Positions 21,617 through 23,444 of a DNA stretch of 64,000 bases are shown in pieces. How positions within the stretch are numbered: position 1 is the stretch's first letter; every line of letters starts with the position of its first letter. The translations under genes and the position numbers were made by a program. Below the pieces are notes generated by a model. It was not told where the DNA came from and did no database searches. It saw only the letters and a list, made by a program, of their open reading frames with translations. Location: sequence record PZ386969.1; one strand, written 5' to 3'. The stretch comes from a phage.

Positions 21617-23444
21617 CACAAAGAGGAGAGGACTTTTCAAATTAGCTTGGCTGTAGTAAAGTATTAAACACGAGGCGAATAGCGCGGTGGTAGTAGGGCT
21701 GGAACCCGAAACCAGGAAAGCCCAGTCTCAGGGCACCGTGACGAATAGAGGCGTAATATCAACCTCGCTGGTGTCGGTGGACGCACTGACCGTCGGAGAA
21801 CGAAACTCCCTGTTGTAGCGTGATTAGCTCAGAGAAGAGAGCGCCCCGTTGGCGAGTCGACACCAACACATAGGGGAGGTCGGGTCTGCCAAAATCCATC
21901 ACGCCGACAACATTATGAGTCTTCCATAGAGGGTTCATAATGTTGCGTCAAAGGGCAACACAAAGGTTCCTGTTGGTTGAATTAACTTGATTCATAGTTC
22001 CTACTGATCTTCCCGGATTCGAAGGATCACCAACAGGCGAGGCCGGATGCGTAAGTTCCGGTAAATCGATGGTGACGCCCTCGCAAACAAAAATAAAAGG
22101 TTTTATCAATAACGGGTTACAAAGTATAGTTAACCCACTGAACGGCAAGCTGTTTGAGTCCTGGCCACTCATAGTGTTGTGAGACCAAGACAGGTACGTT
22201 TAGGACTCAAACAGGTTTTCGTTTTCGTTGTGCGTGACTTTGCGGGTTTTTAGAAACTGACCAAGCAAATAACTGCTAATGATTCCGAAGTTCTGATGGC
22301 GGCGTAACAGCCTATAAGTCAGTGAGGTCTTCCGATTCCTCATCACCAAATTCGGCGCACTAAAATAGACGGGAGGGTGTGATTAATAAGCTCCCGTCGA
22401 CAATGCCGTTATATCTGACTGTCCAAAGGGGATAAGCTCCTGAGTAAGCAGAGGTGGGTTGCCTAAGTCAGATGGGATGTAAGGTCAGCGCTGGCCAAGC
22501 ATTTGGGTTCGACTCCTAAAAACGGCTCCACATCTTTGAGGATATTCTCACGAGTATCTTGAAAGATGTGAGCGAAGTCTTGCCATCAGCCCTGATCCCT
22601 GGCAGGTGAAGGGCACACAAATCGAAGTGCCTTGACAATTTATCTTAAACCCAAAGGTTGATCTACAAATTTGGGCGGCCAATCCGGTGGACGATAACAG
22701 CATATTGGGCCATACTGTTGAGTCAGGGCACTTCGATTTGTGAACTTTAGAGAGCATTGGGTGAAATAGACCATGCCTTGCAGATTGCGATGCCTACACA
22801 TTCCGGACACTGGTGGGCACCAAGAAGAACTCAGTAGCAGACGAGCCATCAGGGTTAGCTACCCGGCGCGGCGAGGACTGGGAGGCCGAACTAAGGGGAA
22901 ACCCGAGACAGGCGTAGTATTCTCAAGTTCACAAAATGAAGAGCATTTAAAGAGTTCGATTCTCTTTCAGGCCATTCGTGGTGTGATGTGAGTCATGAAT
23001 GTTCTTCATCTTTGGGTGATTCTATGTTGTCGGGCTATCAACCCATGCTTGCTGGAGCAACCAGCGGCTCTGAATCAACCAGCCAGCCTCGTTTGGTCCG
23101 AGCGTTAGAGGACAAGTTGCTTCTACATGGAAGCTGCGAGTTGCGACATTGGTTGCAACTTTGATGGCTCTGGATTTTATAAACCATGTCTATGGGTGAC
23201 GCGGGATCTTTAGTACCAGAGCTATCAAAGTTGTGTCCAACCCGATCTTACAAGCCCGTATCCCGGTCTGGTTAAGACTTGTAAGTGGAAAGCCCTGGAA
23301 AAATAAACGCCTGTGGCGAGGCTATGGTGCAAGCCAAAGACCCACAGAAGCGCGTTGCCGTGAGGCGCACAAACAGGCATGCATGAACTGATCATGCACA
23401 AACGGGATAAAGGGTTGACAGTCCTTGGTTGGTCACAATAATTT
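21617..23444. ncRNA. ORF-free hairpin-rich region, candidate structured non-coding RNA(s)
   Basis: 1.8 kb without ORF over 75 aa in a dense genome, GC similar to coding; perfect 13-bp and 16-bp long-range inverted repeats and several local hairpins. Confidence 0.35.

Follow-up and report, generated by a model that had tools for sequence, protein, structure and literature searches.

The DNA analysed here, a stretch of 64,000 nucleotides (nt) from sequence record PZ386969.1 that is referred to below as the window, originates from a Vi1-like phage of the Ackermannviridae, near Escherichia phages A221, RPN242 and YX22 and Shigella phage Ag3. It carries two long perfect inverted repeats, repeat 1 and repeat 2, within a stretch of about 1.8 kb (21620-23440) that has no conserved open reading frames (ORFs) and lies immediately 5' of four transfer RNA (tRNA) genes, all on the + strand. 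The tRNA genes, tRNA-Met, tRNA-Asn, tRNA-Tyr and tRNA-Ser (23445-24418), were detected with ARAGORN and Rfam. A sigma-70-like promoter was predicted upstream of repeat 1 and a strong intrinsic terminator (24635-24655, + strand, terminator scan) downstream of the tRNA genes. As a whole, the locus is best explained, with a probability of roughly 0.6, by both repeats being + strand RNA stems in an RNA-gene island, where the repeat 1 helix (hp1) would be the outer helix 5' of a module resembling transfer-messenger RNA (tmRNA) and the repeat 2 helix (hp2) would close a module of 127 nt.

The inverted repeats and their pairing on the + strand

Repeat 1 consists of CTGTTTGAGTCCT (22150-22162) and its exact complement AGGACTCAAACAG (22202-22214). 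Repeat 2 consists of CACAAATCGAAGTGCC (22616-22631) and its complement (22727-22742), with 95 nt between the arms and a unit length of 127 bp. Both perfect repeats exist as claimed in a preliminary description of this DNA, which placed the complement of repeat 2 correctly; its first arm (22617-22632), spacing (94 nt) and unit length (126 bp) are replaced by the values above. The same description had called the region free of ORFs, which holds, since in relatives, even in the closest one (the 99%-identical A221), frameshifts or stops interrupt the short ORFs that run across the repeats; a protein-coding reading of these short ORFs was thus ruled out. The proteins encoded on either side of the stretch were also examined and gave no clue to its function.

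When G-U pairs are allowed, hp1 extends to about 25 pairs with two mismatches (22140-22164 with 22200-22224; whole element 22140-22224, + strand) and encloses two small hairpins. Likewise, hp2 extends to 21 pairs without a bulge (22616-22636 with 22722-22742) around an interior of 85 nt. Perfect inverted repeats of at least 13 nt within 120 nt were found at three places in the 64 kb (8695, 22150 and 22616), against an expectation of 0.11 per window from dinucleotide shuffles, and a 16-mer arm pair appeared in 0 of 100 shuffles. The fold z-scores on the + strand were -4.4 for hp1 and -6.8 for hp2.

The arms are conserved and covary among homologues. For hp2, the comparison comprised 12 distinct sequences in three haplotypes, including that of phage SKML-39; 98.4% of the alignment cells were paired, and 9 of the 21 pairs were changed on both sides. 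Pairing fell to 19-50% in slid controls, in which one strand was shifted by 1-3 columns. In SKML-39, the otherwise 'invariant' hp2 core AAAUCGAAGU/ACUUCGAUUU is replaced by AAAGUAGAGU/ACUCUACUUU. For hp1, 99.6% of the positions were paired over 17 sequences; two pairs were changed on both sides, and each of nine one-sided changes kept a G-U, A-U or G-C pair. Two more long helices in the stretch covary, 22529-22547 with 22552-22570 and 23154-23173 with 23216-23235. All these helices taken together contain many G-U pairs and hardly any A-C pairs, and the folding strand is the + strand, which is also that of the tRNA genes. This asymmetry indicates that only the + strand is under selection to fold, which argues for a role as RNA rather than at the DNA level. 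The long RNA helices that the preliminary description had offered as one explanation are thus supported by compensatory and G-U-compatible substitutions that fit the + strand alone, and, as judged from these substitutions, both repeats are stems of folded + strand RNAs maintained by compensatory changes.

The interior of the hp2 element behaves differently from its stem: the stem varies, and the interior motifs CUUAA.CCC..AGGU, GCGAUA, ACA and UGGG.C are invariant, a combination that is the usual signature of a functional RNA. The element (22616-22742, + strand) is flanked by block boundaries at 22614/22615 and 22753-22766. By sequence comparison, repeat 2 closes an independent RNA module of 127 nt that belongs to no known family, and nothing in Rfam at E values up to 10 overlaps it. 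A covariance model of hp2 recovered the copies of the window and SKML-39 from which it was built and nothing in Dickeya phage LIMEstone1 or Erwinia phage Bue1; elsewhere it gave one weak match, in an N4-like phage. This match (IMG/VR contig L098, 6483-6575; 23.5 bits) lies beside a tRNA-Leu and has a different stem of 14 pairs and similar interior words (UUUAACUCUUAGGUU ... ACAACAGAUUGGGUCAU).

RNase III stalks, such as the stems of rRNA operons and the sites in T7 early RNA, are helices in which the sequences on either side of a folded RNA form about 20 or more pairs without interruption, as part of a polycistronic transcript. The same geometry is seen in hp2 and in the helices 23154/23235 and 22529/22570. 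With 21 uninterrupted pairs, which amount to two turns of double-stranded RNA, hp2 has the length of such a stalk and may be of this type.

A tmRNA-like module adjoining repeat 1

The region around repeat 1 was found to be organised as a promoter, hp1, a short junction and a tmRNA-like coding module, termed module C (22215-22400, + strand). The promoter (TTATCA-16-TATAGT, 22103-22130, + strand, promoter scan) has its predicted start near 22137, a few bases 5' of hp1, and about 10 nt separate the end of the promoter from the helix. In an alignment of 12 genomes its hexamers are conserved (TTATCA or TTGTCA for the first, TATAGT invariant) and the spacer is variable. The promoter is kept in LIMEstone1, and TATAGT is kept in Bue1.

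The junction between hp1 and module C is a tandem UUUUCG UUUUCG (22216-22229, + strand), of which copy 1 is the 3' strand of the lower hp1 stem and copy 2 is the conserved 5' edge of the tmRNA-like module. UUUUCGU is located at a fixed distance before GCGACUUUGCGG in all the phage families. In Salmonella phage SP1, an HNH homing endonuclease gene (L007, 1522-1992) is inserted exactly between the two UUUUCG copies, so that the copies mark a cassette junction. The 9-mer RAGAGCATT, considered as a junction motif, was not enriched in the window.

Module C contains a tag reading frame of 10 codons (22275-22307, + strand), GCU AAU GAU UCC GAA GUU CUG AUG GCG GCG UAA, which encodes ANDSEVLMAA and a stop. 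The frame begins at a GCN codon after a conserved AUAAAU and runs for exactly 10 codons; its stop sits in the loop of a helix and is followed by a hairpin and two pseudoknots. The loop of the hairpin (22323-22342) pairs with 22352-22355 to form the first pseudoknot, and the second is formed by CGCACU (22356-22361) with GGUGUG (22376-22381) and by 22368-22375 with 22391-22398. Both pseudoknots are 3' of the tag frame, and none was established 5' of it. The module C helices and one pseudoknot were 97.5% paired, with seven pairs changed on both sides, including those of the first pseudoknot between the loop and its downstream partner. In the other pseudoknot, one stem is invariant and the other differs between groups.

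The tag frame was compared in 27 distinct DNA variants, every one of which keeps the 10 sense codons and the stop, with no internal stop and no change in length. All 10 third positions vary, compared with five first and six second positions, and the residues Ala1, Asn2 and Ala10 are invariant. The two alternative frames contain stops in 22-25 of the 27 variants. This pattern of variation shows that the tag frame is under selection. The tags of other phages include ANDDVVLMAA, ANDNTFLAVA, ANEEMYLAVA, ANDEQFLAVA and ANDNEFKVAA; the ssrA tag of E. coli is ANDENYALAA, compared with ANDSEVLMAA in the window.

BLAST searches detected module C also in unrelated phages, among them DS8-like siphoviruses, N4-like phages, and HK620 and P22-like E. 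coli prophages (137 of 5426 genomes), where it is located between Q and the holin gene. A pattern derived from its 3' part matched at least 120 IMG/VR contigs and, among species-representative bacterial genomes, only eight, mostly of the Enterobacterales. Where tRNA genes are present near module C, they are on the same strand. In lambdoid and N4-like phages a stem of 22-25 pairs occupies the same place before module C as hp1 does here and often encloses a T-arm. The conserved RNA words and the tag peptides were found in no searchable paper. On this sequence evidence, module C is an unannotated part of a tmRNA-like gene that is common to many enterobacterial phages.

The tag frame has the features of a tmRNA frame, with a GCN resume codon after an A-rich leader, about 10 codons, a C-terminal Ala and a stop. 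The Rfam models tmRNA_permuted and beta_tmRNA align to the module C region in three phage groups with identical mapping, at 19.8 bits in the window, 23.1 in lambdoid contig L110 and 31.2 in Bue1. In these alignments the long stem before module C maps to the outer helix that encloses the T-arm and the acceptor hairpin of permuted tmRNA genes, and hp1 aligns to the outer stem of tmRNA_permuted, the only family overlapping hp1 at E values up to 10. In the model alignments, hp1 thus takes the place of the long helix that closes the tRNA-like domain in permuted tmRNA genes. The hp1 interior of about 28-39 nt contains no T-arm or acceptor.

A second arrangement was observed in L065, L012, L042 and 15 other contexts, where a T-arm-like hairpin followed by C(A/G)CCACA-AC(C/A) is located 150-450 nt downstream of module C. 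The C(A/G)CCACA motif is complementary to UGUGG(U/C)G upstream of module C, at 7 of 7 positions in six contexts and at 6 or more of 7 in 12 of the 18. These two motifs may form the acceptor stem of a complete tmRNA-like gene of standard topology. The pairing of UGUGGYG with CRCCACA-ACC is suggestive in L065 and the siphoviruses, but a promoter-like site and repeated cassettes confound it there. For such a standard-topology acceptor stem, the best partner in the window was at chance level (p ~0.13).

It is possible, although on balance doubtful, that a divergent split tmRNA system is encoded by enterobacterial phages of at least four unrelated groups, namely Ackermannviridae, P22-like lambdoid phages and prophages, DS8-like siphoviruses and N4-like phages. 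Such a system would combine the hp1-closed coding module with separate tRNA-like acceptor modules and tag nascent chains during infection with a variant degron (...LMAA or ...LAVA, compared with ...ALAA), or it would be a decoy of the coding part only that blocks ribosome rescue by the host. If a split system were present, the 'ORF-free region' of Ackermannviridae would be an exchangeable cassette array of translation-directed RNAs.

A mosaic island of RNA modules

Further structured elements are distributed along the stretch. T-arms were searched for as stems of at least 4 pairs (5-6 in all the matches given here) with a UUCRANY loop; the scan recovered the four tRNAs and three extra + strand sites (22502-22520, 22949-22967 and 24550-24566), with no more than three weaker matches on the two strands of the rest of the 64 kb. 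Of the extra sites, the first is part of module D (22404-22530, + strand), a cloverleaf-like, tRNA-like module recognised by scan and fold, with an acceptor-like stem GCCGUU/AACGGC, two arms, the T-arm and a 3' UCCA. Neither ARAGORN nor Rfam called module D a tRNA or tmRNA, and its third acceptor pair is C-G, so it lacks alanine identity. It is followed by a 19-pair hairpin (22529-22570, + strand; z -6.2), in which five pairs show compensatory changes and the loop carries an inserted T-arm element in relatives. The second site, a canonical T-arm, is enclosed by a 14-pair stem to form a tRNA-like cassette (22936-23009, + strand; T-arm scan and fold), whose arms, GAAGAGCAUU and AAUGUUCUUC, resemble those of the lambdoid long-stem cassettes, GGUAAGAGCAUU and AGUGCUCUUUCC. 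A 20-pair closing helix follows (23154-23235, + strand; z -7.4), with five pairs showing compensatory changes and all 12 sequences paired. The third site is a cryptic T-arm after tRNA-Ser (24550-24566, + strand), and further T-arm elements are present in relatives as insertions. No tRNA cloverleaf (ARAGORN, RF00005) was found in the stretch upstream of 23445.

Some part of the stretch is shared by more than 400 phage records, and about 200 share most of it. Among relatives, between 1491 and 2987 nt lie between position 21560 and tRNA-Met, and breakpoints recur near 22066/22090, 22226, 22389/22402, 22547, 22614, 22753-22766, 23082, 23137 and 23440. Klebsiella phage P01 (Taipeivirus) and the window share 96% identity over the block 22402-23137, compared with 73-79% over its flanks, which points to a recent exchange of RNA modules between genera. 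Close relatives also differ by the loss of modules, 22767-23146 being absent from L025 and several T-arm elements from the window itself. In some relatives the stretch also contains a gene for an HNH homing endonuclease or the small RNA STnc100. STnc100 (RF02076, 49-54 bits) is inserted at about 23137 in Klebsiella Taipeivirus relatives (L001 3729-3943, L004 2445-2658 and L008 3229-3443), and Rfam did not find it in the window. Since modules are gained and lost independently among relatives, a single giant RNA fold was rejected.

In the distant relative Bue1, the equivalent ORF-free stretch of 2.1 kb has five long stems of 12-19 pairs (L011, 2090-3605) that are unrelated in sequence; one of them (L011, 2999-3094) closes a tRNA-like domain with a T-arm. 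Taken together, the T-arm sites, the cassettes and the Bue1 stems indicate that the stretch is an island of stem-closed RNA modules, many of them tRNA-like. From the sequence features, the locus appears to be an untranslated RNA-gene island of about 2.5 kb, beginning at the promoter at 22103-22130 and probably ending at the terminator at 24635-24655, which Ackermannviridae reshuffle module by module. In the Rfam 15 search of the window, only the tRNAs reached gathering thresholds, and at E values up to 10 only the weak tmRNA_permuted match was added. The long-stem cassettes and module C of other phages matched no Rfam family either, and no report on non-coding RNA of Ackermannviridae was found in the literature.

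Other observations were made along the stretch. At 21822-21850, an invariant GUGAUUAGCUCAGAG...GAGC resembles a tRNA 5' half with a D-arm, which points to a further tRNA-like module in the initial third of the stretch. Conservation with LIMEstone1 is highest (91%) in the block 23223-23442, which ends in a near-consensus promoter-like TTGACA-16-AATAAT abutting tRNA-Met, a gene that is located elsewhere in LIMEstone1. The ORF-poor stretch of LIMEstone1 also contains an unannotated ORF of 52 codons (L010, 2208-2365) with a cysteine-rich, zinc-ribbon-like motif.

Proposed roles, alternative explanations and comparison with known systems

In the favoured explanation, the island would be transcribed on the + strand from the promoter at 22103-22130 to the terminator at 24635-24655. 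In the resulting RNA, hp1 would scaffold, close and stabilise a vestigial tRNA-like 5' end of the tmRNA-like transcript, the enclosed tRNA-like domain having presumably shrunk in the window to the two small hairpins. The tmRNA-like RNA could rescue ribosomes in partnership with a tRNA-like module encoded separately (22404-22530, for example), or it could act as a decoy. We infer that hp2 would insulate the fold of its 127-nt module, and it may in addition serve as an RNase III-type stalk, at which the module would be cut free of the polycistronic RNA, as for rRNA.

Several results weigh against this interpretation. In LIMEstone1 the 3' arm of hp1 is missing, although its 5' arm and the promoter are kept, and the hp1 covariation comes from two haplotypes and hence few independent events. 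No consistent fold was obtained for the hp2 interior, and the possible RNase III role of hp2 draws on helix length only. The Rfam scores of 19.8-31.2 bits are below the gathering score of 47 (RF04321), the ARAGORN tmRNA search was empty in the window and in about 150 loci, and nucleotide similarity to E. coli ssrA was not significant. An acceptor stem with G3-U70 was not found, and there is no T-arm within hp1; a tRNA-like domain with T-arm, G3-U70 acceptor and 3' NCCA was likewise not found in the window. Because ARAGORN made no call, no G3-U70 acceptor was found and ssrA similarity was lacking, the module is called tmRNA-like and not tmRNA.

Four rival explanations were considered, each of which is less well supported than RNA helices. 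In the first, repeat 1 is a promoter-proximal intrinsic terminator or attenuator that yields an RNA of about 90 nt from the 22103-22130 promoter and controls downstream read-through, which is unlikely. The conserved promoter about 10 nt upstream and GGUUUUCGUUUUCGUU after the helix would suit such an element, as would the equivalent lambdoid stems, in which the 5' strand is A-rich and the 3' strand U-rich, but neither repeat was called by the terminator scan. The 'loop' of hp1 is 35-39 nt long, and its U run is interrupted and base-paired in the extended helix. The combination of a short G+C-rich stem, a loop of 3-8 nt and a U run that characterises intrinsic terminators is absent from both repeats, hp2 having no U run. 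UUUUCGU is also kept in siphoviruses that have no preceding stem, and it belongs therefore to the downstream module.

In the second, the stretch holds the remains of tRNA and tmRNA genes in decay, whose helices are leftovers without present function. The reduced tRNA-like domain in hp1, the scattered T-arm fragments and the loss of modules in close relatives (22767-23146 in L025, several T-arm elements in the window) are as expected from decay. We nevertheless regard this explanation as improbable, because compensatory substitutions maintain at least four long helices, the length and key residues of the tag frame are kept over 27 variants and four phage groups, and an invariant pseudoknot motif occurs in at least 120 viral contigs. 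The 96% identity of a block between genera further implies recent spread or strong constraint.

A role of the repeats as DNA, forming cruciforms or hairpins for replication, packaging or recombination, is highly improbable. It would account for the long perfect palindromic arms and for the recombination breakpoints near the stem bases, but pairing is kept via G-U (G-T in DNA), which leaves A-C mismatches on the opposite strand, and the elements are co-oriented with the tRNA genes and the tag reading frame. This strand asymmetry largely refutes a DNA-level role.

Finally, the suggestion of the preliminary description that the repeats are terminal inverted repeats of miniature inverted-repeat transposable elements (MITEs) inserted in the non-coding stretch was rejected and must be considered the most remote of the four, since each arm pair is present once in the 64-kb window, no target-site duplication was found and no exact empty site exists in relatives. 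The resemblance to MITEs lies in the perfect arms of 13 and 16 bp around a short non-coding unit and in a region with presence/absence polymorphism, where a block boundary coincides with the base of repeat 2. However, no direct repeats were found at the flanks of repeat 1 (GGGCA/CACAAA...TTTGTG/AACTTT) or of repeat 2 (GCAAG/CTGTTT...AAACAG/GTTTTC; slashes mark the repeat ends). An insertion polymorphism had been proposed as a further check, and it was borne out in part: RNA modules come and go, with one breakpoint at the base of repeat 2 (22614/22615), but the unit itself is not precisely absent in any relative, because relatives without repeat 2 lack larger or differently bounded segments and not the 127-bp unit. 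In IMG/VR the hp2 arms were found solely at this Ackermannviridae locus. The arms covary as RNA, and compensatory and G-U substitutions that preserve pairing on one strand are not expected for transposase binding sites. The MITE explanation is thus already largely refuted.

The elements at this locus are accordingly placed among phage structured RNAs and tmRNA-related genes, and the tmRNA-like module beside repeat 1 is their most consequential part. The 1.8-kb stretch is at present annotated as empty or with spurious tiny ORFs in hundreds of genomes of therapeutic-candidate phages (Kuttervirus, Taipeivirus and Agtrevirus), and an island of folded RNAs would change both the annotation and the engineering of these genomes. 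For coliphages, Salmonella phages and E. coli prophages, no report of a conserved tag frame was found, and the frame described here escapes the standard detectors; it would make phage interference with ribosome rescue, or phage use of it, testable in model hosts. The long closing helices would provide handles for mapping the excision of non-tRNA modules from phage tRNA-operon transcripts.

Phage T4 carries a tRNA cluster that also encodes stable non-tRNA RNAs, species 1 and 2 (rnaC/rnaD). Like the modules described here, these are structured small RNAs of unknown function on the same strand beside phage tRNAs, with which they share precursors. Compared with the T4 cluster, the island in the window is larger, mosaic and equipped with a tag reading frame. 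GOLLD and ROOL are likewise large non-coding RNAs adjoining tRNAs in phages, and in YrlA, a bacterial Y RNA, a tRNA-like domain is joined to a long stem, an arrangement also seen in the T-arm cassettes of the window and of Bue1. In contrast to these RNAs, the modules of the island come and go singly, and no Rfam match to GOLLD, ROOL, YrlA or 6S was obtained in the window at E values up to 10. The small RNAs STnc100/PasD of lambdoid prophages (RF02076; bioRxiv 10.64898/2026.05.13.724894) occupy the same genomic niches as the modules described here, with a place in the lambdoid late leader between Q and the lysis genes and, in Klebsiella Taipeivirus relatives, within the present stretch, but neither repeat belongs to STnc100.

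The circularly permuted (two-piece) tmRNA genes of alpha- and beta-proteobacteria and cyanobacteria (RF04321, RF01850) show the same order of elements, with a long outer helix, an enclosed tRNA-like part, a hairpin region, a conserved A-rich leader, a GCN resume codon and a 10-codon tag that ends in Ala and a stop. The enclosed part contains a T-arm in the lambdoid versions. In contrast to permuted tmRNA genes, the phage sequences score below threshold, and the enclosed domain of about 28-39 nt has no T-arm or acceptor, neither G3-U70 nor a CCA-ended acceptor hairpin having been found. The pseudoknots after the tag are also unlike those of permuted tmRNAs, and the hosts, Enterobacterales, use a standard one-piece tmRNA.

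The published lists of phage tmRNA genes name only mycobacteriophages, such as those of the Bxz1 group, and Bacillus phage G (Hudson, Lau and Williams 2014, PMC4131195); this comparison does not extend to the 2025 tmRNA database (PMC11915505) with its 79 entries from phages. Mycobacteriophage DS6A carries a 'tRNA-like domain only' gene, the product of which inhibits the host tmRNA (PMC4131195). These genes and module C are alike in being phage-borne and related to tmRNA, and DS6A illustrates that phages can carry a partial tmRNA. The genes of Bxz1, G and DS6A differ from module C in that they have canonical tRNA-like domains and were found by searches of the ARAGORN type. In the enterobacterial phages described here, by comparison with DS6A, the coding part is kept rather than the tRNA-like part, in a form that ARAGORN misses.

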